DNA of 14,168 bases from Pseudomonadota bacterium (GTDB taxonomy: Bacteria; Bdellovibrionota; FAC87; UBA2466). A program made the position numbers and the translations under genes. Of the stretch, positions 1 through 14,168 are shown one piece after another (the stretch's first letter is position 1; each line of letters begins with the position of its first letter). The stretch spans positions 1 to 14,168 of the forward strand of contig JAYSWN010000049.1 of the NCBI GenBank assembly GCA_043718025.1, in the 5' to 3' direction. The notes under the pieces are model-generated. The model worked only from the letters and a program-made list of their open reading frames with translations. It ran no database searches and was not told the origin of the DNA.

Positions 1-44
1 GATGGGTATATCCGCTTGCCTGCCGCATTGACTTGGAACTGCAT
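1..44 (-). CDS. IS3-family transposase OrfA, N-terminal fragment (partial)
   Basis: ATG at 44 gives MQFQVNAAGKRIYP..., which runs off the window. KRIY resembles the basic R-x-Y start of IS3 OrfA HTH proteins. It lies just inside the putative IRL. Confidence 0.45.
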   Translation of the reverse strand, partial: MQFQVNAAGKRIYP

Positions 45-98
45 GATTCACTCTCTCTAGCATAAAGAAAGTGTCCGATCCAATTGGGGACAACTCCA
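1..98 (-). mobile_element. IS3-family insertion sequence, left end (rest lies outside the window)
   Basis: Minus strand from 98 reads TGGAGTTGTCCCCAATTGGATCGGACAC, a typical IS3-type terminal IR (5'-TG...CCCC...GGACAC). It is followed by TATGCT, GAGAGAG and an ATG at 44. Homology between repeat copy 1 and copy 3 stops at about 98/99. Confidence 0.7.
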
Positions 99-504
99 GT
101 CCGCGTCTGGAAACAAACCCGCTTGAATTTAGGTGGCTGACAATCTCGCTCCATTCTTTCCGTTCGCTGTCTCGAAGTCTGAGTATCAGACGTACCACCC
201 GGATTTCCTTCGAGCAGGTTACCAATCGTCCCGAAGTCACCCGCTGTCCGAAAGGAGGCTCGGGATACCGGAAATTGTCCGAAGATCTTCCACGTCCGAC
301 TGTCCGGTGGATGCCAGCCCTCCGGAGACGTGCGAGAACCATCTGCTTGGAGGCTCCGACCATTTCTGCGATCTGGGCCGCAGAAAGACCCTTTTCGACG
401 TAAAGTTGCTTCAAAACGGAGATGTCGGTGCGTTTCGGAGAGATCGGAAAATCAATGAAGTCTGTGAGATAGGAGCGGTTCGTCCAGCATCTGGCTTTGT
501 CCAA
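99..504 (-). pseudogene. HTH + Recombinase-domain protein, copy 1, 3' end cut by IS3
   Basis: Manual translation from TTG at 504: LDKARCWTNRSYLTDFIDFPISPKRTDISVLKQLYVEKGLSAAQIAEMVGASKQMVLARLRRAGIH...PPFGQ...WSEIVSHLNSSGFVSRRG, then IS3 sequence. Bases 101-503 align without gaps to 6522-6924, with about 35 mismatches in 403 nt by hand count (~91%). It is absent from the ORF track because the frame runs off the window. Confidence 0.85.
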
Positions 505-749: not shown

Positions 750-1112
750 ATGAGCTTCGAATTTGAGAACCTCGACGTCTACAAGAAATCCGTCGCCTGG
801 GCCGCCACAGTTGAAGCCTTAACCAAGACTTTGCGCAGACAGGTATCGCCGTCGCTCCTCGATCAATTAACTCGCGCCGCCCTTTCCATTCCTTTGAACA
901 TAGCCGAAGGGAACGGTCGTTGGCATAAAGCCGAAAAACGCCAGTTCCTATGGATTGCCCGTGGTTCTACGTTCGAGTGCGTTCCGATTCTTCAGGTCTT
1001 GCGCGAGAACGGTTTAATCGATGTGGAACAGCATTCAAGTTTCCGAGTTCAATTGATCGAAATTGGCCGAATGATCAATGGACTGCTGAAATCGATCGAG
1101 AAACTCAATTAG
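750..1112 (+). CDS. Four-helix-bundle protein (23S rRNA IVP / bAvd-like family)
   Basis: Family motifs FENLDVYKKS, DQLTRAALSIPLNIAEG.GR, FLWIARGS.FE and IGRMINGL. The ATG at 750 is preferred over 672 because the family N-terminus starts there. Confidence 0.9.
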   Translation: MSFEFENLDVYKKSVAWAATVEALTKTLRRQVSPSLLDQLTRAALSIPLNIAEGNGRWHKAEKRQFLWIARGSTFECVPILQVLRENGLIDVEQHSSFRVQLIEIGRMINGLLKSIEKLN

Positions 1113-1647
1113 CCCACTCGTTCTTGAGAAGGCTAAATACGACCTGGTCCACAAATCTGTCGTAGAGACGTTCGTTATCTCGAAGAACGCCTTCCTCTTT
1201 AAAACCCAGAGCCCTAGGAATTGCCTGACTCGCCTTATTGTCGGTGGCGCATCGGATCTCGATCCGATGGAGCCCCAAGTTCTTGAATGCGTAGCTTGTA
1301 ACTGCGCGAGTCGCTTTTTTCGCGAACTCGTTTCCACGAAACTCCTCGCCGATCCAGTAGCCGATCATTGCCTTTCGATTGAACCTATCTACCTCGACAA
1401 GATGGACTACGCCGGCGATCTTGTTGGCCGCTAAAAGTAGGAAGCAATACCCGTTCTCCTCGGCCATTAGTGCGAGCCGCGAATCAATATATCTTTCAGC
1501 ATCTGAAATGGTTTGCATCCCATCAAGCCACCCGAGCTGCTCTCGCAGGTACGCTCGATTGCGCTCTATGAGAGCGAAGAAGGCGGGAGCGTGGTGCTTT
1601 TGGATGGGCTGGAGCTCCAACTGATCGTCTATTTTTAGGCTGGACAT
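1105..1647 (-). CDS. RimJ/RimL-family GNAT N-acetyltransferase
   Basis: Motifs NRAYLREQLGW, IGYWIGEEFRGN, LGLHRIEIRCATDNKASQAIPRALGFKEEGVLRD. Start at ATG 1647; the upstream extension to 1785 overlaps copy 2. Confidence 0.9.
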   Translation of the reverse strand: MSSLKIDDQLELQPIQKHHAPAFFALIERNRAYLREQLGWLDGMQTISDAERYIDSRLALMAEENGYCFLLLAANKIAGVVHLVEVDRFNRKAMIGYWIGEEFRGNEFAKKATRAVTSYAFKNLGLHRIEIRCATDNKASQAIPRALGFKEEGVLRDNERLYDRFVDQVVFSLLKNEWAN

Positions 1648-1653
1648 GAGCGA

Positions 1654-1682
1654 ATAGTACTCCTGCGGCAAGACCGCTGCAA
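1654..1682 (-). promoter_or_regulatory. Putative sigma70 promoter of the GNAT gene
   Basis: TTGCAG-17 nt-TACTAT, 6 nt before the ATG at 1647. Confidence 0.45.
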
Positions 1683-1696
1683 CGAAACGAGATCGA

Positions 1697-2176
1697 TTAA
1701 ATCTTACCGGTCCAGCGCTTGTGGACCCGTTTAACTCCAACCGAGTTCCAAAGTTGATTTCTCCTGGTCGCCAACCCCTTGGCATTCAGCTGGCGAACAA
1801 TATCCGCCCATTTAGCCTCCTTCCGGTCCCGAAGCTCGACAATAAACCGAGCGATGACCATCTCTTTCCGGTTCACCACCAACCTTCGATCCGAGGTAAT
1901 TCGGTATCCAAACGGTGGTATCCGATATCGAAAATTGTACGGCGACCGACCACGGTCCTTTGTCCGGTGCACTCCTGCCCGACGTAGCCGCGCAAGAACC
2001 AGCTGCTTCGAGACACCAAATTGCTCGGCTAATTGAGAGGCCGTGCGGCCCTCTTCGAGGTAAAGTTTCTTCAAAAGCGAAGAATCCACTCGTCTCGGTG
2101 AGATCGGAAAATCAAGGAAGTCGGTGAGATAACCGCGGTTCGTGCAGCGTCCGGCTTTGTCCACCAACCTGGACAA
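1697..2176 (-). CDS. HTH + Recombinase (PF07508-like) DNA-binding protein without catalytic domain, copy 2
   Basis: HTH segment LKKLYLEEGRTASQLAEQFGVSKQLVLARLRRAG, then PPFGY and IVRQLNAKGLATRRNQLW..VGVKRV, typical of the LSR recombinase domain. No Y-x-R-x-S resolvase motif. Start is TTG 2176, TTG 2167 or GTG 2164; an in-frame TGA lies a few codons upstream. Confidence 0.8.
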   Translation of the reverse strand: MSRLVDKAGRCTNRGYLTDFLDFPISPRRVDSSLLKKLYLEEGRTASQLAEQFGVSKQLVLARLRRAGVHRTKDRGRSPYNFRYRIPPFGYRITSDRRLVVNRKEMVIARFIVELRDRKEAKWADIVRQLNAKGLATRRNQLWNSVGVKRVHKRWTGKI

Positions 2177-2185
2177 TACTCGAAC
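2138..2185. other. att-like site 2 (symmetric, attP-like)
   Basis: GTTCG(2138-2142)...CGAAC(2181-2185), centred on CC 2161-2162. Contains TTGTCCA-6 nt-TGGACAA (2157-2176) and CCACCA. Confidence 0.7.
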
Positions 2186-2386: not shown

Positions 2387-3301
2387 TCACACCGACTTGC
2401 CGCCCACCGAGACCCGGAAGTTTTTCTCCGCCCAGGTTGCAAAATCAGTTGCAGGTTTGTCGGCGACTTGGTTTGCCAATTTGATTTGAGCATCATAGTT
2501 CGCGCCCAGATAAGTGTGGCTTTCGAAATAAGCAAACATTTGGGCAAGCTCACGTGCGCCGTTGAAGAAGGTCGAAAAGACCTCAACCGGGACTGAGTTG
2601 AAGGTAAACTTGTGACCCTGTTTATTGAGCGTACTCACAATGTCGTTAAAGCTTAGTAAACCACCCACCAAAGGGAGGTACTGTCCGTTGCCCACCTTCT
2701 CAGGATGCGCAAAAGCACCTGCAACGACATTCCCAAGCTCGGTGATATCTCCCATGTGAACGGCTTTCACCGTCGGATCGATCGGCAATGTCCAGCCTAT
2801 TGAGCCGTCCTGCTTTGATTGAGGCGCGAGCGTGATATTCAGATTTTGAAAAAAGAACGGCGCTATGACAAACGTATGGTGCCTAAAACCGCCATTCTTG
2901 ACTACGTCATCTACTTTCGCTTTCTCGGTAAAATGTGGGACATCAAACTTACCGCCGCTGATCCTTTCAACGTTGGGCAGCGTTGACCAAATGAAATGCT
3001 GAACGCCAGCCTTTTTCGCTGCTTCGACGGCCGCCATGCCTTGTGTCAGTTCATCGGTGCCTTTTTCCCAGAAATTGGTGACTGCGAAGACCCCGTAAGC
3101 ATCTTTGAACGCGGCTTTGAGTGTTTCCGGGCGGTTAAGATCTGCCTCAACGACTTCATCGCCGATACCCTGGTGCCTACTGGGGTTGCGGGTTAACGCG
3201 CGGACATGGAATTTACCACTCGCTTGAAGTGCTCGAACAACACCGCCGCCTTGGTTTCCAGTTGCGCCTAGGACCGCAATAATTTTCTTTGTAGAGGACA
3301 T
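2387..3301 (-). CDS. NmrA/HSCARG-family NAD(P)-binding protein
   Basis: Rossmann motif IAVLGATGNQGGGV, then VRALTRNP, AFKDAYGVFAVTNFW, AGVQHFIWSTLP and VPHFTEKAKV. Confidence 0.92.
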   Translation of the reverse strand: MSSTKKIIAVLGATGNQGGGVVRALQASGKFHVRALTRNPSRHQGIGDEVVEADLNRPETLKAAFKDAYGVFAVTNFWEKGTDELTQGMAAVEAAKKAGVQHFIWSTLPNVERISGGKFDVPHFTEKAKVDDVVKNGGFRHHTFVIAPFFFQNLNITLAPQSKQDGSIGWTLPIDPTVKAVHMGDITELGNVVAGAFAHPEKVGNGQYLPLVGGLLSFNDIVSTLNKQGHKFTFNSVPVEVFSTFFNGARELAQMFAYFESHTYLGANYDAQIKLANQVADKPATDFATWAEKNFRVSVGGKSV

Positions 3302-3408
3302 GATTAATATTTCCTTTGTGGTTCGTTGATTAACGTTTCAGTCGATTTTACTGAGCACGAACCAAGAACTGCCCCTTTCAAGATTTAGAGCGCTTGCGAG
3401 GTACTTGA

Positions 3409-3885
3409 TCAACGGCTCGGGCGTGCCTTGTTGAACATGTACCGAGATATTTTCCAATCGTCCCCGACTTTGACAAAAAGAAAGAACTCCCGGTTCTCTT
3501 CTGGCCCGGTAACTTTATTTGAGAGAACGGTTACCTCTCCCTTGGATGCGGTGCGAGCAAACGCGACATTTCCCGAAACAACGATCTCATCAACCGTAAA
3601 TTTAATGCGCAGCTTTATGGCACTGAAAACGTGATTGTAAGCCGCGACTAATTGTTCCCGCCCTCTCGCCGTTGGTGCCTCTGTTGGCATGAAGATACCG
3701 TCGTCCGCATAAAGGTCGACAGCATCCTTCGTGCTGGAACTATTCAACGCCGCCTCGTATCGGCTTAACTGCTTTTGAATCTTTTCTTCTTCCATACCAT
3801 TCTCCTGGTTAAGTGGGCTCCGGCCCCAACTGCAAGGGCCCGAGGTTAAAAACGCTAGAAATAAGATTGCTGAAAGCTGCTTCAT
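3409..3885 (-). CDS. SnoaL-like / NTF2-family (DUF4440, YybH-like) protein
   Basis: Motifs YEAALNSS, LYADDGIFMP, GREQL and WKISRYMFN. Hydrophobic N-terminus may be a signal peptide. SD-like GGGAGA upstream. Confidence 0.85.
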   Translation of the reverse strand: MKQLSAILFLAFLTSGPCSWGRSPLNQENGMEEEKIQKQLSRYEAALNSSSTKDAVDLYADDGIFMPTEAPTARGREQLVAAYNHVFSAIKLRIKFTVDEIVVSGNVAFARTASKGEVTVLSNKVTGPEENREFFLFVKVGDDWKISRYMFNKARPSR

Positions 3886-3893
3886 GAATCTCC

Positions 3894-5420
3894 CTATCTG
3901 ATATTCATTCTAAGGATTCCGATTTCCTTCTCGGGGATTTCCAAAAATTTGGCCATTTGTTTCCGCCATTGTTCTAGGATGGGCATCCGGTGTGCCAGGA
4001 CCAAGGTGGGTAGCCGTCGCTTTGCAATGACGGCGCAGGCCATCACTGTCTTTCCGGCTCCCGGAGGTGCCACGAGAACCCCACTTTCGTGGGGAATAAG
4101 CGCCTTTACCGCTTTGTTTTGTTCGGGAGATAGCTCTCCATGAAACGAAAGCGAAGTCTTTCGATGCCTAGGCCTTTCATCTCGAACTACGATTTGGCTC
4201 CCGGCCAACTTCAAAATCTCAAGACATCGATCGAGGGTCCCTCTTGGCAACATTAGCAAGTCACCATCCATCTCACCGCAACAGATGAATCGAGGAATAT
4301 TCCAGGTGGAAAATCTGAGGCGTTGTTTCTCGAAGAATATTGGATTGGCAAACGTCGCGGTTCGCTTTAGCGCCGCTATGAGAGGTGACGGGAGGCCCTT
4401 CAAGCTAATTTTTATCTGCGAACCCAAATGGATTTCGACTTGCTCGGGATAGCAGCCCGGCTGAATTTTTCGGGCTCCGGAATCCAACAACTTTTCAGTA
4501 CGCAAGACTTCCGCATCATCCGTAGGCACGAGTTCGAGTGAAAGCGAAGTATCCAGAACTCTATCAAGCAACCCTTGGACTTCAACTGCCGATAAGCGTG
4601 GGACAGATGCCAAGTATTTCCATTGGTCGGTGATGGGAGTTAGGCTGTCATCCAAAAACAAGGTATTTCCGTTCTCCCGAGGCTTTCTCTGGAGAGGCAA
4701 AGCGATCAGATTGCCGAATCCGCCCCTTGGAAGACAGTCCTGATTCGGAAAAAATCGATCGTAACTCTTGAGGCTGAGCCCATGTCTCTTCGAGGAAGTC
4801 CGAGCCATGATGGCGGTACCCATTTGTCTCGCCAATCTTGCGGAAACCGGTTCACAGAACAAAATCCACGCATGGCCGCCGTCGCCGGATCTTGAACGCT
4901 CAATTGCTGCCGTGATTCCCAATTCAGATGCAGCGCTCCGAAAAGCGATGATGTCCTCCCGCCAAGACGATCCATCAAAATCGGCTGCCAAAAAGGCACA
5001 GGAGCCATCTTCCCGAATGGCGTAAGTGCCTAGCGTTTCACTTCCCTCAAGATGTCTCCGGATAGCGTTGGCTTCCAATAACGGAAACGCGTGGTTCGGG
5101 CATTCACTACATTTCACTTTGGGTTTGTCGCAGATTCCTGAGCGCCATTCATTATCGCAGGCCGGAGAGTAGCCTTTCTTGCCCGTCTTATAGTTTTCCC
5201 AAAGCTTCGGAAAGACTTCCTTTCGGCAAACGAACAAGTACTCAAACAGACTAATTTTCTCTTCTGGACTGGTTGGGGTTAGTGAACGGGCTGGCTTTCC
5301 TAACGGTCCGGTCAGTTTTTCCGCTTCTGACGCAACGACATCCGCAAGCTCGACAAGAAGTCGTTTTTCTTCCTGTCGTAATTCTCTAAGTCGAGTTTCG
5401 ATTTCAACTTTGCGGTTCAT
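3894..5420 (-). pseudogene. AEP (TOTE-type) primase + SF2/ResIII helicase, C-terminally truncated
   Basis: Primase-type motifs GYSPACDNEW, CDKPKVKCSECPN, FLAADFD, ERSRSGDGGHAW, YDRFFPNQD and GGFGNLIALPLQ. Helicase Walker A APPGAGKT and motif Ia LVLAHR..LEQW are present, but the ORF stops before any DExH motif. Confidence 0.8.
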
Positions 5421-5450
5421 TTGGTCAACACAGCCTGCTTTTAGCTGGCT

Positions 5451-5936
5451 TTACGCGACCTGGACCGCATTTGCGAGCTTTGGATCGAGTAACTGGTCCA
5501 GCTCTCTAATTTCCTGAAGGCGTGTTTTTCCACCATGACCGCCGGTCACGAAATCAGTGGCTAACGCAAGAAGGGCCAAGGCCGCAAAGTGATCGATAGA
5601 AGAGTTTCGTTGAGCCGCCCTCGTAAATGTGGAGGGATCCATTCCGCCGGCTAGTACCGCGAACTCCTGCACCGAGAGCCCAATGGATTTTCTAATCCAC
5701 TGTGCTACTTTGCCAGGAAGTTTCTCGGCCTGATGCGCATAAAATTTAATCAATCCGGAGAGAAGCTTTTTGTTCTGCTCCGCTGAAACTACCATGTCCT
5801 TCAACACATCTCCGCACTTGGGACATTCGAGCACCTTTAGCCCACGGATCTTAAAGGTTGGGCCACCCTCAATTTCTACTACTTCATCAATCGTTTTGGG
5901 TGCCATGACACCCTTTTGGCAATTTTGGCATTTCAT
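5451..5936 (-). CDS. YgiT-type zinc finger + HTH protein (MqsA-like antitoxin)
   Basis: MKCQNC...LECPKCGD zinc finger followed by the HTH WIRKSIGLSVQEFAVL. ATGA overlap with the upstream gene. Confidence 0.75.
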   Translation of the reverse strand: MKCQNCQKGVMAPKTIDEVVEIEGGPTFKIRGLKVLECPKCGDVLKDMVVSAEQNKKLLSGLIKFYAHQAEKLPGKVAQWIRKSIGLSVQEFAVLAGGMDPSTFTRAAQRNSSIDHFAALALLALATDFVTGGHGGKTRLQEIRELDQLLDPKLANAVQVA

Positions 5937-6379
5937 CGATCTTTCCTCCTAGTCACCGAAACTGAAATTTTTCTCCTCACCCCGCCACCAGGCGCCTCTT
6001 CGTAGTCCGAATGAGACTTCAACCAGTCCTTCTTTATCTTCGCGTCATCCTTCCCTGGTTCATAGGCAGTTCCCACCCTTACTTGAAACGCATCCTGAAC
6101 AACCAGAGTGTCGTTGCCGTCTTCGTTCACCAGCGCACACTGTAGTTCAAGAAGTCTTCCATCCACGTCCCTGCCACGCCAGAGAAGCGTTAAGTCCCCC
6201 GGGCGAACTCTTTCGACCTTACCGTTTTCAAGAGCCTTTCTGACATCAGACTCCAAGATCTCCCGCCAAATACGGTCCTTCTCGATGTGTCTCGCGCGGA
6301 TGAAAACCCGTTCCGGCGCACTTTGCACAAGCTCGCGAATCTTAGTGGTGTATTGCCCAAGAGAAGCCTGACTCATCAT
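5933..6379 (-). CDS. DUF4258-like putative toxin with C-terminal extension
   Basis: RHIEKDRIWREILESDVRKALENGKVE...LLWRGRDVDGRLLEL...LVV matches the DUF4258 pattern. Translationally coupled to a YgiT-finger/HTH gene. Confidence 0.65.
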   Translation of the reverse strand: MMSQASLGQYTTKIRELVQSAPERVFIRARHIEKDRIWREILESDVRKALENGKVERVRPGDLTLLWRGRDVDGRLLELQCALVNEDGNDTLVVQDAFQVRVGTAYEPGKDDAKIKKDWLKSHSDYEEAPGGGVRRKISVSVTRRKDR

Positions 6380-6460: not shown

Positions 6461-6970
6461 CTAGAGTTTTCCACCCCAGCGCGTATGGATCCTTTTTACT
6501 CGTATCCTGGTCAACGGGAACCCGCGCCTGGAAACAAACCCGCTTGAATTTAGGTGGCTGACAATCTCGCTCCATTCTTTCCGTTCGGTGTCTCGAAGTC
6601 TGAGTATCAGACGTACTACCCGAATTTCCGTCGAGCACGTTACCAATCGCCCCGAAACTACTTTCTGTCCGAAGGGAGGCTCGGGGTATCGGAAATTGTC
6701 CGGAGATCTTCCCCGTCCAGTTGTTCGGTGGATGCCAGCCCTGCGGATACGGGCAAGAACCATCTGCTTTGAGACGCCGACCATTTCGGCGATCTGGGCC
6801 GCAGAAAGCCCCTTTTCGACGTAAAGTTGCTTGAAAACGGAGATGTCGATGCGTTTCGGAGAGATCGGAAAATCAATGAAGTCGGTGAGATAAGAGCGGT
6901 TCGTCCAGCATCTGGCTTTGTCCACCAATCTGGACAATACTAGAACACTTCCGGAAGTGTTCCACATCAT
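6461..6970 (-). CDS. HTH + Recombinase-domain protein without catalytic domain, copy 3
   Basis: Paralogue of copies 1, 2 and 4 (YLTDF, KQLYVEKGLSAAQIA, SKQMVLAR, PPFG, IVSHLNSSG..SRRG). True start is probably TTG 6937, TTG 6928 or GTG 6925, since the upstream ATGs are not conserved in copy 2. Confidence 0.8.
   Translation of the reverse strand: MMWNTSGSVLVLSRLVDKARCWTNRSYLTDFIDFPISPKRIDISVFKQLYVEKGLSAAQIAEMVGVSKQMVLARIRRAGIHRTTGRGRSPDNFRYPEPPFGQKVVSGRLVTCSTEIRVVRLILRLRDTERKEWSEIVSHLNSSGFVSRRGFPLTRIRVKRIHTRWGGKL
6899..6946. other. att-like site 3 (symmetric, attP-like)
   Basis: GTTCG(6899)...AGAAC(6942-6946), centred on CC 6922-6923. TTGTCCA-6 nt-TGGACAA at 6918-6937; contains CCACCA. Confidence 0.7.
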
Positions 6971-7044
6971 GTAGTTTTTTGATCTGTGGTCGACACGACA
7001 TAAAAAACCTCTCGGGCTGGAACCGAACCGGAATCGAACACCAT
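6943..7044. repeat. Conserved cassette left end, copy b (palindrome + 32-bp motif)
   Basis: Perfect 20-bp palindrome GAACACTTCCGGAAGTGTTC (6943-6962) and CGGGCTGGAACCGAACCGGAATCGAACACCAT (7013-7044). Confidence 0.8.
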
Positions 7045-7202: not shown

Positions 7203-7790
7203 ATGAGACTGACCTCCCTAATTGCTTTCGTATTTGCGATAACATTGGCTAGCGGTGGGTTTGCAAACCACGCGCTGGAAGAAGGCGCTAGTGACCGCAC
7301 GAACGCAGGTGAAGAGGACCAAGAGAAGGCCTTCGTTAGGGCTTTGGGAGTTGTCTTTAAGGACCCGGCAACGGGCAAGCAAAAGACAGACAAGTACAAC
7401 GCTTATCTGAAGTGGCAAACGGACAGAACGGAGCTGGTTCGCCAGATCATAGATGCCGATACGGACTTAAAGAAACGCTCACTCGCTCGGAAACTTACGT
7501 CTTTGGACCAGGATTTTAGACTTTTCAATTCTGAAATCCTAAGAGCGATGGACGTTTTATCCGCAGCGGAGATTAAGCTTTATCCGGATGACGCCGCCTT
7601 CAAGAAAATTAAAGACCACGATGAAGAAACGTACGACACCTGGCAAAAAGATCGCTTAGTGGTTGTAGAGTCAATTAAGAAGGAATCAAACGATGAGAAA
7701 AAACGGTTCCTTGCCGGCAAACTCAATGCAATTGATCGAGGTTTCAAAATTCAGTTCATGGGATTTTTACTAGGCCTATCCGCCGATTAA
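7203..7790 (+). CDS. Hypothetical secreted protein with an internal duplication
   Basis: SD AGGAG upstream, signal-peptide-like N-terminus, and two Y..WQ.DR...KKR.LA.KL...D..F segments. Confidence 0.75.
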   Translation: MRLTSLIAFVFAITLASGGFANHALEEGASDRTNAGEEDQEKAFVRALGVVFKDPATGKQKTDKYNAYLKWQTDRTELVRQIIDADTDLKKRSLARKLTSLDQDFRLFNSEILRAMDVLSAAEIKLYPDDAAFKKIKDHDEETYDTWQKDRLVVVESIKKESNDEKKRFLAGKLNAIDRGFKIQFMGFLLGLSAD

Positions 7791-7811
7791 ACTGCAACAT
7801 CGGAATAGAGA

Positions 7812-8288
7812 CTAAGCTGCCGACGCCTTATCCTTCACAATCTTGTACTCAAGTTCGTATCCCAGCGCCGCTAAGAGCTTGATCATTTGATCGACCGTCT
7901 TTGTTTGATTCGCGGGATCGAGCAAGCGATAAAGCTGCGCCGGGGAAGTAGACAGCTTTCTAGCTAATTCCCGGCGGCTTAATTTCGAAGTCTTGATTCT
8001 ATCGAGGGCATCCACCGTCAGGCGATGAAGCAGTAATTTGGCCAAATATTCTGGGTCCCGGTTGTAATCAAGAAACGCATCCAGAGGGATAGAGTTTTCA
8101 TCTCCTGAATCGAGAACGTAGGTAATTCCTTCGCTGCCCATCTCCTTATCCACATAGACCTCGGCGATCTTATTTGAAGCTGTAGGAACAAGGCCCGACT
8201 TGGAGAAAGGGAGCACAAACTCGCCCTTTGGAGTCTCAATTTCAAAACATTTTCGATGGTTGTTGGCCAATACGCTTTTTATCTTCAC
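7812..8288 (-). CDS. Putative antitoxin with C-terminal XRE-type HTH
   Basis: HTH KLSRRELARKLSTSPAQLYRLLDP...TVDQMIKLLAALG. GTGA overlap with the upstream DUF4160 gene. Confidence 0.75.
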   Translation of the reverse strand: MKIKSVLANNHRKCFEIETPKGEFVLPFSKSGLVPTASNKIAEVYVDKEMGSEGITYVLDSGDENSIPLDAFLDYNRDPEYLAKLLLHRLTVDALDRIKTSKLSRRELARKLSTSPAQLYRLLDPANQTKTVDQMIKLLAALGYELEYKIVKDKASAA

Positions 8289-8479
8289 AGTTTTCCTTCC
8301 ATAACCAGTTCACTAATGATCTGCCTGAGCCTGCGGTCCATCTGCCCATCCATCACGACGCTTCGATCGAGGTTCCACTTGGCTATAAACTTACCGTCCT
8401 TATAAATATGGACATGTCTGGGCGAGTGATCTCCCTTCCATGTCACAAAGGTGTAGTTTCCTCGGCGGACCTTACTCAC
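8285..8479 (-). CDS. DUF4160-family putative toxin
   Basis: GDHSPRHVHIY motif. GTG start at 8479 inferred from the promoter position (the ORF track starts at 8515). Confidence 0.75.
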   Translation of the reverse strand: MSKVRRGNYTFVTWKGDHSPRHVHIYKDGKFIAKWNLDRSVVMDGQMDRRLRQIISELVMEGKL

Positions 8480-8485
8480 CAAATA

Positions 8486-8515
8486 ATAGTACCATACATG
8501 GTAACGCTTTATCAA
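8486..8515 (-). promoter_or_regulatory. Putative promoter with operator palindrome for the DUF4160/XRE pair
   Basis: TTGATA-18 nt-TACTAT, 6 nt before the GTG. Inverted repeat TACCAT-AC-ATGGTA (8490-8503) overlaps the -10. Confidence 0.55.
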
Positions 8516-8546: not shown

Positions 8547-9007
8547 TCAAACCTTGTCGGCCCACCTGTTAAAAACCTTTCTTATGCGAGAACGGTCCCA
8601 CTTTCCGCCGGTACGGCTGGGTATTTGCCTTTCATACAGGTAAGCGACGATCGCTTTCCACCCGAGGAGGTCCACTGTTCGCAGCTTTACGATGACGCGA
8701 ACAATCTTCATCTCGGAACGACTGACAACGAGCCGACCTTTGACTGCTCGAAACCCAAACGGTGGATTGCGATAGCGGTAGTTGTCTTTCCGGCGTCCGT
8801 GTCCGAGCAACGGACGAACACCTTCCTTTCTGAGTCGCGCCAGGACTGCTTGTTTGGAAAGGCCCGTTTGGTCTCCGATCTGGCTCGCTGTCAGTCCCTG
8901 TTGAGCAAATTCAGTGAAGACTCCGGAAGGAATTCGGCGAGGAGAATGGTAGTAATTAAGGAAATCAGATAGATAAAGGTGTTCGGGTATTGTCTCGTTC
9001 GGTCCAA
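8547..9007 (-). pseudogene. HTH + Recombinase-domain protein, copy 4 (divergent, 1-nt frameshift near the 5' end)
   Basis: The frame of ORF 8547-8810 extends upstream to 8975 as YLSDFLNYYHSPRRIPSGVFTEFAQQGLTASQIGDQTGLSKQAVLARLRKEG. There are only 5 nt between CGAAC and the Tyr codon, versus 6 in the other copies, so the TTG at 9007 is out of frame. Confidence 0.75.
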
Positions 9008-9028
9008 AAATTCCGCTAACGCGGAATT
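8981..9028. other. att-like site 4 (hybrid)
   Basis: GTTCG at 8981 and GTCCA with CC at 9004-9005 (offset 23 again), then the hairpin element as at site 1. Confidence 0.6.
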
Positions 9029-9168
9029 TTAGAAAATAGAAAATCGTAAATAGCTGAAAATAGATTAGAAATCTCGCCCGTCGGGCGGAATTTTTCCTCT
9101 ATTTTCTATTCTCGATTTTCCTCCGATTCCGAGTTCGGAGAGGGAAAAGAGAGGGAATTTTCCCTCTC
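9006..9168. repeat. Hairpin + heptamer-repeat structured element, copy 2
   Basis: Stem AAAATTCCGC(9007-9016)/GCGGAATTTT(9021-9030). TAGAAAA TAGAAAA TCGTAAA repeats. GGGCGGAATTTTTCCTCTA at 9083-9101. Complementary CTATTTT CTATTCT CGATTTT. Extra hairpins at 9075-9087, 9121-9140 and 9149-9168. Confidence 0.75.
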
Positions 9169-11534: not shown

Positions 11535-11593
11535 GAAGTCTCCCTATCTACTGAAAAATATTTCGTTTTAGCTAACATGCCCGACTCGTTGAG

Positions 11594-11704
11594 TCACTCG
11601 TAATTAAGATGATAACGGCGCCTGTTCTTGTAGCTCTTCCAGGTTCTCTCAAGCGTGGAATGACCCATTCAGACGCTAATGTTCTCGAGGGAGTGGCCCT
11701 TTGA
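11594..11704 (-). pseudogene. Tyrosine recombinase C-terminal remnant 1
   Basis: Manual translation SKGHSLENISV*MGHSTLERTWKSYKNRRRYHLNYE*. W-to-TGA nonsense codon at 11671-11669. Contains the MGHS...Y box II. Confidence 0.75.
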
Positions 11705-11706
11705 AT

Positions 11707-11844
11707 GGAATTGACCTTTACGCCGGAAGAAAGGGATTTACGGATCTGATGCTCGCCAAAGGACACGCTTTGGAGAACATCAGCGTATGGATGGGGCACT
11801 CCACCCTTGAGCGGACCTGGAAGAGTTATAAAAGCCGGCGCAAA
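11707..11844 (+). pseudogene. Tyrosine recombinase C-terminal remnant 2, cut by IS66
   Basis: GIDLYAGRKGFTDLMLAKGHALENISVWMGHSTLERTWKSYKSRRK aligns with the box II pattern HxLRHxFAT...LGHS...TxxY. Confidence 0.8.
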
Positions 11845-11920
11845 GTGAACGCTCCATCAACCCCACCTTTTAGCCCTTAGGAAATCCCGTACACTGAGCC
11901 TCTCAATCACGGAGGTTAAT

Positions 11921-12211
11921 GTGGATTCGACTATTCAATCGGAAAAAGTAGTGTCGTGGCCAGCTGAGGTGGCGCTGTTTGCGAAGCACACCGGATCTCT
12001 TGCTGGATTTTGCCGTTCGCGCGGACTGTCAGAAGTTCGGTTTCGTTATTGGGAGCAGAAGCTACGCAAATCCAGTGTGAGCAAGGTCGTTTCGGTGTCG
12101 CCGTTTGTTTCGGTGAAGGTGGAACCAAAAGCAACGGTTTCAACGGTGGGGCTTCCAGATCCGCGCTGGCTAGCGGAGTTAATTTTGCATCTGAACGGGT
12201 CTGGACAGTGA
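11921..12211 (+). CDS. tnpA: IS66 accessory protein TnpA
   Basis: SLAGFCRSRGLSEVRFRYWEQKL...FVSV pattern; SD GGAGG; first ORF inside the IRL. Confidence 0.85.
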   Translation: MDSTIQSEKVVSWPAEVALFAKHTGSLAGFCRSRGLSEVRFRYWEQKLRKSSVSKVVSVSPFVSVKVEPKATVSTVGLPDPRWLAELILHLNGSGQ

Positions 12212-12564
12212 AGTCGGTTAGAGAGTTTCTCGGCGTCTTTTTTCACCGCGAGCCAGTGGACATGCGTAAGGCGATAAATGGGCTCTCACAGTTGGTGGAG
12301 TCGGCCGGAATGGGCGAGATGATGGGGCCGAATCTTTTCGTGTTCTCGAATCGCCGCCGGGAGCTGATAAAGGTTTTGTATTTTGACCGGTCCGGATTCG
12401 CGCTGTGGATGAAGCGGCTGGAGAAGGACAAATTCCCCTGGCCAAAGAAGCACGAATCAACGGTGGTGAGCTTAAGCCCCGAGCAATTTGAATGGCTTCT
12501 CGATGGCTACGATGTTTGGAAGATGAAACCGTTCGAAAAATTGAATTACGCTCGGCTAAGTTAG
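12208..12564 (+). CDS. tnpB: IS66 accessory protein TnpB
   Basis: PVDMRKAINGL, LFVFSNRRRELIKVLYFDRSGF.LWMKRLEK..FPWP. GTG start overlaps the tnpA stop (GTGA). Confidence 0.93.
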   Translation: MKSVREFLGVFFHREPVDMRKAINGLSQLVESAGMGEMMGPNLFVFSNRRRELIKVLYFDRSGFALWMKRLEKDKFPWPKKHESTVVSLSPEQFEWLLDGYDVWKMKPFEKLNYARLS

Positions 12565-12601
12565 TGACTCCGATCTGTTTTTTGTTAGAGTGCGGCCATC
12601 G

Positions 12602-14140
12602 ATGGAACGAGCCGCAAATTTATTTTCCGACGCTGAATCGCTTCACATCGAAATCCAGAGTCTCAAATCGGTAGTTGCGCAGAGCGAACAGCGCCTCGCT
12701 TTGTACGAAGAAGAGAATTTCAATCTCTATGAGATCATTCGCAAGCTAAAGAAAGAGGCCTTTGGCCCTCGCAGGGAACGTTGGGAGAGCAATGAGCAAG
12801 TGCTTCTTTTTAACGAAGCGGAAAGTTGTGCCGCTAACGAAACGGCAGCGCCCGAGCCCGAGGTAGTAGTTCCCGCGCACACCCGCAAGCGCGGAAAAAG
12901 AGAACCCTTGCCGCAGAATCTCCCGCGCGAGGTTGTGGTTATTGATTTGCCCGAAGCCGAAAAAGTAGCGCCAGACGGAAGTCCCCTGCGAATGATGGGC
13001 GAAGAGGTTTCCGAAAAGCTCGTGTTTGAGCCCGCAGTGATGAAGATCATTGAGTATCACCGGCTAAAGTACGGCGGAGCCGAAGGGGCAGACACGGTAA
13101 AAATAGCCGCCGTTCCCCCATGCATCATCCCCAAGGGAATCGCTACTTCCTCTTTGCTTTCACAAATCGTCACAAGCAAGTTCGCTGACGGGCTGCCTCT
13201 GTACCGGCAAGAAGAGCAATTTGAAAGGCTTGGCGTCGATATCCATCGCTCCACAATGGGTCGGTGGATTATCCAAGCCGCCCAAACCTGCCAGGGTATC
13301 TGGAACGCTCTGGAAGAGCGGCTTATGAGTGAGCGTTACGTCACTTGCGATGAGACGCCCGTGCAGGTGCTCAAGGAAAAAGATCGAAAGGCAGAAAGCA
13401 AATCTTGGATGTGGGTCCGGGCTACGCCCGCGGCAGATAAGAAAATCGTTCTTTTTGACTACGATCCCTCTCGCTCTGGCGATGTGGCCAAAAAACTTTT
13501 CGCCGAGTACCAGGGCTTTTTCCAGGCCGATGGCTACGGCGCCTACAACGTGCTTGAACAAAACGCCGGAATCATTCGCATCGGCTGCAATATGCACGGG
13601 CGCCGCAAGTTTTTCGACGCAGCCGAGGGCTCGGCAAAAGGGCAGTCTCTCGCGAAAGAGGGGCTCGACTACTACCAAAATCTTTACGCGATCGAAAAAA
13701 GAGCCAAAGGGCTTTCCTTTTCTGATCGACACGCGCTTCGCCAAAACGAAGCAACCCCTTTGTGGGATGTAATGCACGAGTGGGCTCTGAAGCACAACGA
13801 GTCAGTGCCGCCGAAAAGTAAAATCGGAAAAGCCTTTCACTACTTCCTGGCCGAGTACGAATGCCTTCGAGGATATCTCAAGGATGGCTGCCTCGAAATG
13901 GACAACGGTTTCACCGAACGAGCCATAAAGTACTTCGCCATCGGCAGGAAGAACTGGATGTTCTCCGACACTGTCGCCGGAGCCAACTCCAGCAGCATCT
14001 TCTACAGCTTTGTCGTCACCGCAAAACTCAACGGTGTCGATCCCTACCAAGCGATGAAGAAAATCTTCGACGAGGTCCCGCTCTCAACCACCGCCGATGA
14101 CTACGATCGACTTGCCGATATTCTGCTCGGCATTCGATAG
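12602..14140 (+). CDS. tnpC: IS66 DDE transposase TnpC
   Basis: Motifs KFADGLPLYRQ, CDETPVQVL, FQADGY..Y, CNMHGRRKF, MDNGFTERAIK..AIGRKNWMF and TAKLNGVDP. Confidence 0.95.
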   Translation: MERAANLFSDAESLHIEIQSLKSVVAQSEQRLALYEEENFNLYEIIRKLKKEAFGPRRERWESNEQVLLFNEAESCAANETAAPEPEVVVPAHTRKRGKREPLPQNLPREVVVIDLPEAEKVAPDGSPLRMMGEEVSEKLVFEPAVMKIIEYHRLKYGGAEGADTVKIAAVPPCIIPKGIATSSLLSQIVTSKFADGLPLYRQEEQFERLGVDIHRSTMGRWIIQAAQTCQGIWNALEERLMSERYVTCDETPVQVLKEKDRKAESKSWMWVRATPAADKKIVLFDYDPSRSGDVAKKLFAEYQGFFQADGYGAYNVLEQNAGIIRIGCNMHGRRKFFDAAEGSAKGQSLAKEGLDYYQNLYAIEKRAKGLSFSDRHALRQNEATPLWDVMHEWALKHNESVPPKSKIGKAFHYFLAEYECLRGYLKDGCLEMDNGFTERAIKYFAIGRKNWMFSDTVAGANSSSIFYSFVVTAKLNGVDPYQAMKKIFDEVPLSTTADDYDRLADILLGIR

Positions 14141-14168
14141 CCTACCCTGTGGTTTGTGGAGCGTTCAC

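Follow-up and report, generated by a model that had tools for sequence, protein, structure and literature searches.

The open reading frame (ORF) at positions 1697..2176 of the window, which spans the whole of contig C178 (14,168 nucleotides) in an assembly of 4.14 Mb that is 92% complete, is probably the detached C-terminal module of a serine integrase (LSR) that carries attP inside its own gene, the module comprising an HTH and a second recombinase-like domain. The broader reading of an LSR gene split at its att site is held with high confidence, and for the tail family as a whole, meaning this ORF and its relatives, the arrangement appears well supported by sequence comparison. Within the split-gene reading, about even weight is given to a tail that would favour integration by binding DNA. 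The ORF itself, copy 2 of four on the contig, is a decayed instance of the arrangement and may be inert today.

Domain composition and fold of ORF 1697-2176

1697..2176, minus strand: tail ORF copy 2, 159 aa from TTG 2176 or 155 aa from GTG 2164 (at the att core); phase 0
1964..2101, minus strand: N-terminal three-helix HTH, residues 26-71 of 159 (Pfam, AlphaFold2 model and structure alignment)
1700..1933, minus strand: compact recombinase-domain-like fold matching the recombinase domain (RD) of LSRs, residues 82-159

A preliminary description of this DNA had recognized an HTH followed by a recombinase domain, with neither a catalytic nor a zinc-ribbon domain. This was confirmed by Pfam, by an AlphaFold2 model, and by structure and HMM-HMM matches: the ORF is real and encodes an HTH and a compact serine-integrase RD. 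The Pfam matches of copy 2 were weak, with the HTH matching HTH_10 at an E value of 0.003, below the cut-off, and residues 105-151 matching the first ~50 of 102 profile positions of PF07508 at an E value of 0.05. The copy at 8547-9008 matched PF07508 at 4.8e-6, above the Pfam cut-off. Judged as an LSR on its own, the ORF contains the RD in its compact version; PF00239 (Resolvase, the serine catalytic domain) gave no Pfam match in the ORF and is absent assembly-wide, and the zinc ribbon/coiled coil (PF13408) is absent from the ORF by Pfam and from its AlphaFold2 model.

The model of copy 2, built on an alignment of 62 sequences, had a pLDDT of 90. Its residues 82-159 aligned with the LSR recombinase domain 9dxd (Z 8.8, rmsd 2.2 Å, 77 residues aligned) and with Bxb1 9iu2 (Z 7.9), LSRs occupying four of the five top rows in the structure alignment, and residues 26-71 superposed on HTH domains. 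In an HMM-HMM comparison the tail matched a 29-sequence LSR profile with a probability of 95% and an E value of 2e-8 over 66 columns at 18% identity. A Foldseek search with the tail model returned nothing at E<=0.001, and no NCBIfam model matching the tail was found. By these comparisons the second domain of the tail is paralogous to the LSR RD but distinct from it and shorter, and it is joined to an HTH that is absent from LSR bodies.

Tail copies, family distribution and selection

94..504, minus strand: tail ORF copy 1, phase 0; 89% alike to copy 3 in DNA; last ~17 codons missing; crossover 502/501
6461..6925, minus strand: tail ORF copy 3, phase 0, intact
8547..9004, minus strand: tail ORF copy 4, phase 1; open frame with no ATG, GTG or TTG ahead of the HTH

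A search of the assembly contigs located four tail copies, all on the contig of the window, and a partial fifth on C24. The other contig copies are 41-56% identical to copy 2. The recurring architecture and stop position reported previously held up, in that three of the four copies end in W-x-[GD]-K-[ILV]-stop, the exception being the interrupted copy at 94-504. A start codon stands at the att core of copies 1-3, and no sigma-70-like promoter was found in 400-2600. Copy 2 is spanned by a single 6.1-kb contig of even depth in two sequencing runs that are possibly the source of the assembly. The tail is under purifying selection, with a dN/dS of 0.19 between copies 1 and 3 (Fisher p 5e-7), 0.26 between copies 2 and 3, for which dS is near saturation, and 0.24 for a tail pair from two other genomes. 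The first of these values bears out the earlier suggestion of a selected gene rather than random debris.

The tail profile matched 26 of 61 related genomes and then 140 of 301 in a larger set. Among the 150 tail matches listed, 146 fall within an open frame of fewer than 300 codons and six contain internal stops. Length is uniform, and the position at the att core constant, for tails across many genera, and a representative-library search gave many proteins of ~155 aa among those listed. Small "recombinase domain proteins" came to 2,254 cluster representatives with E<=0.001, and many of these are HTH-repeat proteins. The same name is given automatically to the nearest ESM Atlas clusters, in which Bdellovibrionota is commonest where the phylum is known, a hint as to lineage. 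A word-index protein search gave one relative of near length and none longer, the latter a weak negative given that other searches did show longer forms; scans of collections by single proteins or patterns found no tail relatives. Among the 51 distinct tails are 16, copy 4 included, with no ATG, GTG or TTG upstream of the HTH, one of the 16 being a pseudogene. At a tRNA-Val (L049, G021:C3), a 1.6-kb LSR-less mini-island carries nothing beyond a tail, one further small ORF and a toxin-antitoxin-like pair.

The tail begins at an att crossover

2138..2185, minus strand: attP-like junction of copy 2, 48 bp; crossover 2162/2161; GTTCG at -24..-20 and CGAAC at +20..+24
6899..6946, minus strand: attP-like junction of copy 3; crossover 6923/6922; left arm resembling that of an LSR directed at tmRNA (P arm, G021)

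Every tail copy starts where an att site has its crossover core. The upstream DNA switches at a short core common to all four contig copies, and genomes G035 and G037 carry an identical tail ORF behind differing upstream DNA, with the switch again at the core. In copy 2 the right arm, 2138-2161, codes for the first residues of the tail. The preliminary description was thus right about the ORF and about a predicted DNA-binding module tied to the cassette ends, but it did not take the att site in which the ORF starts as the 5' boundary.

The CGAAC motif, which derives from the T-loop, lies at +15..+19 in tRNA and tmRNA 3' ends, as opposed to +20 in many tail arms. A 5-bp shift of the zinc-ribbon motif between attB and attP is given as a rule for LSR sites in the accessible text of PMC3783163, and the spacings of +15 in the tRNA arm and +20 in the tail arm therefore correspond to the attB/attP shift. 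By sequence the crossover in these islands falls within the acceptor stem, close to the CCA end, and the phase-0 start codon at the core is a by-product of this CCA-end core. The P' arm of copy 4 is symmetric at 14 of 14 positions with the P arm of the phase-1 tmRNA-targeting LSR of G021 and shares its phase; the arm of copy 2, itself of phase 0, scores 12/14 against a phase-1 LSR arm and 11/14 against a phase-0 LSR arm, a small difference that counts against the split-gene reading. The left att arm of copy 1 is of a host-hairpin type also found in G024. In two loci, L133 (G010:C356) and L071 (G017:C108), the P arms are followed by a tmRNA-3'-like start that has no ARAGORN or Rfam match, pointing to a damaged or unknown RNA target.

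Tail and LSR share a reading frame in related islands

In related islands the tail lies at attL and the LSR at attR, with the LSR frame open into the reverse complement of the tRNA or tmRNA 3' end. All three core domains of these partner LSRs fall within the inserted piece, and the proteins score best against CcrB models, yet far below the cut-off. Pairs were chosen by eye on 20 contigs in which tail and LSR share a strand and the LSR is 5-60 kb downstream, and were drawn from the best 150 of 277 and the best 150 of 267 rows. Three same-contig cases (G245:C10, G263:C2 and G021:C3) were left out because of their other geometry; in the first of these (L131) the usual order is inverted, with a tail that shares the core found 15.7 kb downstream of an LSR whose end is a broken tRNA-Met-like sequence.

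A frame-blind script located the common core in 19 pairs, and the tail frame equalled the LSR frame in 18 of these 19 islands, the LSRs being spread 13, 4 and 2 over the three phases. Shuffling the phases gave a mean of 9.4 matches and reached 18 in 0 of 300,000 trials, and once five pairs had been removed as duplicate, tandem or long-core, 13 of 14 frames matched, with 145 of 300,000 shuffles as good, although p-values from this test are overstated because the genomes are kin. The lone mismatch, G035 (a near-duplicate of G037), reflects a mis-picked centre, and its frames match when the centre is set by the motif. Frames read by hand agreed in four further islands, among them G004 and G023 (with a truncated LSR). 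Genome G218 has three tandem elements at a tRNA-Pro, where each tail agrees with the LSR belonging to the same element, in phase 1/1 (arms 13/14) and 0/0 (arms 9/14), and the frames disagree at the junction between the second and third elements. Across the 18 cognate pairs, outer-arm symmetry averaged 11.4 of 14 positions compared with 6.7 when shuffled (0 of 100,000), and LSR identity and tail identity co-vary (rho 0.41; 0 of 20,000 shuffles). A programmed frameshift was considered for the start-less tails and set aside as unneeded, their phase already being equal to that of their own LSR.

LSR and tail also occur naturally in one frame, as in a frame of 753 aa that carries Resolvase, Recombinase, Zn ribbon, HTH and second Recombinase domains and in the further frames L094 and P0069. 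The natural fusions examined (G218 and G263) are hybrids formed at a tandem junction, where the arms are non-cognate (6 and 3 of 14), and not cognate circles; no joint indicating an excised circle was found among the assembled contigs of the DNA runs. Regarded as a displaced 3' part, ORF 1697-2176 begins at an att crossover, and in its relatives the partner LSR is open through the core in the same frame. The preliminary description had named homologues that are simply fragments of full-length LSRs as an outcome that would count against its reading. The homologues do prove to be fragments, in a specific and regular way, as pieces of longer LSR genes, and a dN/dS near 1 was not observed.

The window as a tandem array

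9005..9150, minus strand: host-type hairpin repeat, left arm of copy 4; present downstream of the tRNA-His and tRNA-Tyr genes of this genome
2186..2283, minus strand: integrase-less right-end block of the upstream unit, conserved
6947..7044, minus strand: second copy of the right-end block, conserved
753..1785, both strands: cargo of the copy-2 unit, a GNAT acetyltransferase (minus) and a four-helix-bundle gene (plus)
2387..6379, minus strand: cargo of the copy-3 unit, a DUF4258/MqsA-like pair, a truncated AEP-TOTE primase-helicase, SnoaL-like and NmrA
7203..8515: cargo of the copy-4 unit, a DUF4160/HTH pair and one unknown ORF
1..98: end of a multicopy IS-like element, depth 83 against ~10 for the contig, interrupting copy 1

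Read on the minus strand, the window resolves by sequence features into a four-unit tandem array, each unit headed by a P' arm and a tail. The units, whose lack of an integrase of their own had been proposed before and was supported here, are decayed and LSR-less, and probably accreted at tmRNA. Because the left arm of copy 4 is a hairpin repeat found behind two tRNA genes, it is likely to be a B arm and so to mark attL and the outer border of the array.

The right-end block recurs without an LSR in G034 and G010, making three genomes in all. Ahead of copies 3 and 2, a ~125-bp block ends in a P arm that is 93% alike over 28 nt to the arm of the tmRNA-targeting G021 LSR. In the two window copies and in L133 and L134, the block shows two conserved segments a constant distance apart, GTTCG motifs that recur, and a palindrome that overlaps the att arm. 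All four copies have an ATG, GTG or TTG 14 codons ahead of the core in the phase-1 frame, which could supply the start for a start-less tail on a circle. The block was also considered as a structured RNA and dismissed, no Rfam match having been obtained in the four loci except one tRNA and the four-sequence fold resting on invariant G-U-rich pairs; as an intact LSR reading frame it was rejected on account of stops or an indel in three of four copies.

Several features of the cargo and flanks recur elsewhere. The primase-helicase at 3894-5420 ends within the helicase, and longer relatives adjoin tails in G006 (L047). A four-helix-bundle gene and the hairpin repeat precede the tail both in the window genome and in G024 (505-1112; L032 in G024; L033 in G010), and the G024 array also holds a DUF4258/MqsA-like pair, so cassettes are common to different genera. 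A complete-looking IS66 with tnpB, tnpC and terminal inverted repeats occupies 11845-14168 at about twice the contig depth, and adjoining its end at 11845 are two inverted, 77%-alike fragment copies at 11572-11880, which presumably resemble the C-terminus of a tyrosine recombinase.

Search for an integrase and a tmRNA gene

The helper integrase postulated previously was not found in the 92%-complete assembly. Searches with PF07508, PF00239, tblastn with seven LSR proteins and the 29-sequence LSR profile all failed to return an LSR, an absence that at this completeness is weak evidence and proves little. An LSR of the G034 type was not covered at 80% identity in four runs. Nor was tmRNA found in the assembly, though smpB is present; C60 has merely a 25-nt look-alike. 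The window contig terminates in a repeat. From two runs that are possibly the source of the assembly came an unbinned 5.4-kb contig with a tmRNA gene, at depths of 9.4 and 8.9 compared with 9-11, whose tmRNA flank equals the arm of copy 2 in the outer 10 bases and is one base off the usual spacing. We infer that this contig belongs to the window organism and to its array.

LSR-type P arms without an LSR gene were also noted in the window genome (G000), at the 3' ends of tRNA-Gly tcc (C117), tRNA-Gly gcc (C166) and tRNA-Leu caa (C230). With the partial, frameshift-like tail at C24:6863-7033, such orphan P arms represent further decayed islands in the same genome.

Proposed role of the tail and alternatives

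Given the frame lock between tail and LSR and the tails that have no start codon, excision would be expected to fuse the tail to the LSR C-terminus, giving a protein of ~730-770 aa on the circle. The integrase would then be long when encoded by the circle and short when encoded by the inserted island. As an incoming circle would have the long form alone, that form would have to perform attP x attB recombination; as an inserted island can make the short form alone, the short form would have to start excision. The tail would thereby favour integration, probably through extra DNA contacts near attP or the target. The window tail would rejoin an LSR only via recombination with an LSR-bearing end.

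A different outcome of the same gene split, to which a minor share of that reading is assigned, is that the long form is restrained, with the tail repressing the integrase promoter or blocking re-integration such that the circle is kept free for transfer. An HTH with a DNA-binding domain fits a repressor, engineered fusions of an integrase with its recombination directionality factor (RDF) block integration (PMC5737554, accessible text), and systems with attP inside a repressor gene use the same logic for regulation (PMC9934374, accessible text). A new circle, however, would have only the long form to integrate with, and no operator was identified.

The preliminary description preferred a stand-alone protein acting as an RDF or as an adaptor for a helper LSR. 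Such a protein, made from the core GTG or TTG and acting in trans, now seems improbable. It would account for the start codon at the core of copies 1-3, for the open, selected tail ORFs retained by the LSR-less units of the window, and for an integrase-less end block that in three genomes keeps its upstream start codon in every copy. A stand-alone gene would not, however, need a frame lock to the LSR of the same island across three phases. The separate start codon expected of an RDF is present in copy 2, but about one-third of tails have none before the HTH, natural LSR-tail proteins exist, and the phase-0 start is explained by the tRNA CCA-end core; the missing promoter and helper LSR also count against it. 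An RDF role is further made unlikely because RDF-integrase fusion lowers attP x attB activity in the accessible texts of PMC5737554 and PMC12286644, which would handicap an incoming circle.

That the tails are non-functional debris, whether duplicated LSR pieces or an assembly repeat, could draw on the IS-cut copy 1, the truncated primase-helicase, the occasional internal stops among the matches listed and the lack of an LSR in the assembly, but it is highly improbable and largely refuted for the tail family by the purifying selection, the uniform length and att-core position in many genera, the distance of the tail from LSR bodies as an RD paralogue with its own HTH, and the even-depth contig spanning copy 2.

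Relation to known systems

In canonical LSR systems attP lies outside int. The split-gene arrangement shares with these enzymes (Bxb1, phiC31, SPbeta and LI Int) an attP of ~48 bp with the outer motif shifted 5 bp relative to attB, and the RD fold as the second domain of the tail, as judged from the accessible texts of PMC3783163, PMC12286644 and PMC5737554. Canonical RDFs differ in being separate proteins that bind DBD2 or the coiled coil (PMC12286644, PMC5737554, same portions), whereas the tail is in frame with the integrase. A close parallel is seen in the ssrA islands of Dehalococcoides, described in the accessible text of PMC3146451, in which DsiB is a CcrB-like LSR at the tmRNA 3' end with no stop before the att site, and in which islands occur in tandem, some without an integration module. 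Its authors proposed that DsiB is perhaps complete only on the circle or beside the 3' gene fragment of another island. That text names no tail domain and contains no frame test, and the crossover there is in the T-loop rather than the acceptor stem; DsiA of the same islands is a small catalytic-domain protein, unlike the tail ORF. The 2014 Islander paper stated that serine integrases were not known to target tRNA genes (PMC4383910, accessible text).

Placement of an att site inside a gene has precedents outside the serine enzymes. One is IntP of Mx8, which we take to be a tyrosine recombinase. Its attP lies within int, and integration swaps the C-terminus, leaving the enzyme alive with altered activity; no HTH and recombinase-domain tail is described in the accessible text of PMC6070905, and the enzyme is treated as a tyrosine recombinase in that of PMC4383910. 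In the archaeal suicidal integrases of SSV1 and pT26-2, attP is likewise translated within the integrase, integration leaves int(N) at one end and int(C) at the other, and tandem insertion generates hybrids, but these are tyrosine enzymes cut into two inactive pseudogenes (PMC7253208, accessible text), whereas here the catalytic, recombinase and zinc-ribbon domains stay together in the inserted piece. The tail system is hence not an SSV-type suicidal integrase, its partners being serine recombinases with all three core domains inserted. Integration-dependent immunity of mycobacteriophages is alike in that att lies in an ORF, the 3' remnant is moved to the far end and frames matter at tandem junctions; there, however, a repressor is split and a short degradation tag is lost, not a 150-residue DNA-binding integrase module (PMC9934374, accessible text).

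The accessible portions of PMC12884075 and PMC5499577 gave nothing further on these precedents, and no description of an HTH and second recombinase tail on an LSR was found in the literature covered, which comprised full texts without supplements and few subscription papers. An att site inside the integrase is thus known for tyrosine integrases and hinted at for DsiB, and the appended HTH and recombinase module would be the new part.

Genome engineering relies heavily on serine integrases, whose direction is credited to att-arm geometry and a separate RDF. We tentatively suggest that the tRNA/tmRNA-targeting class of LSRs may instead set direction by rewriting itself, with no separate RDF, and that mini-islands may keep a tail and end block so that the long enzyme can be restored where elements join in tandem, or so that the tail can be supplied in trans. 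If the split-gene reading is true, small "recombinase domain proteins" would be in part mis-annotated gene halves, and LSRs mined from inserted islands would be the short form with a host-derived tail, the integrating form being still to be tried.
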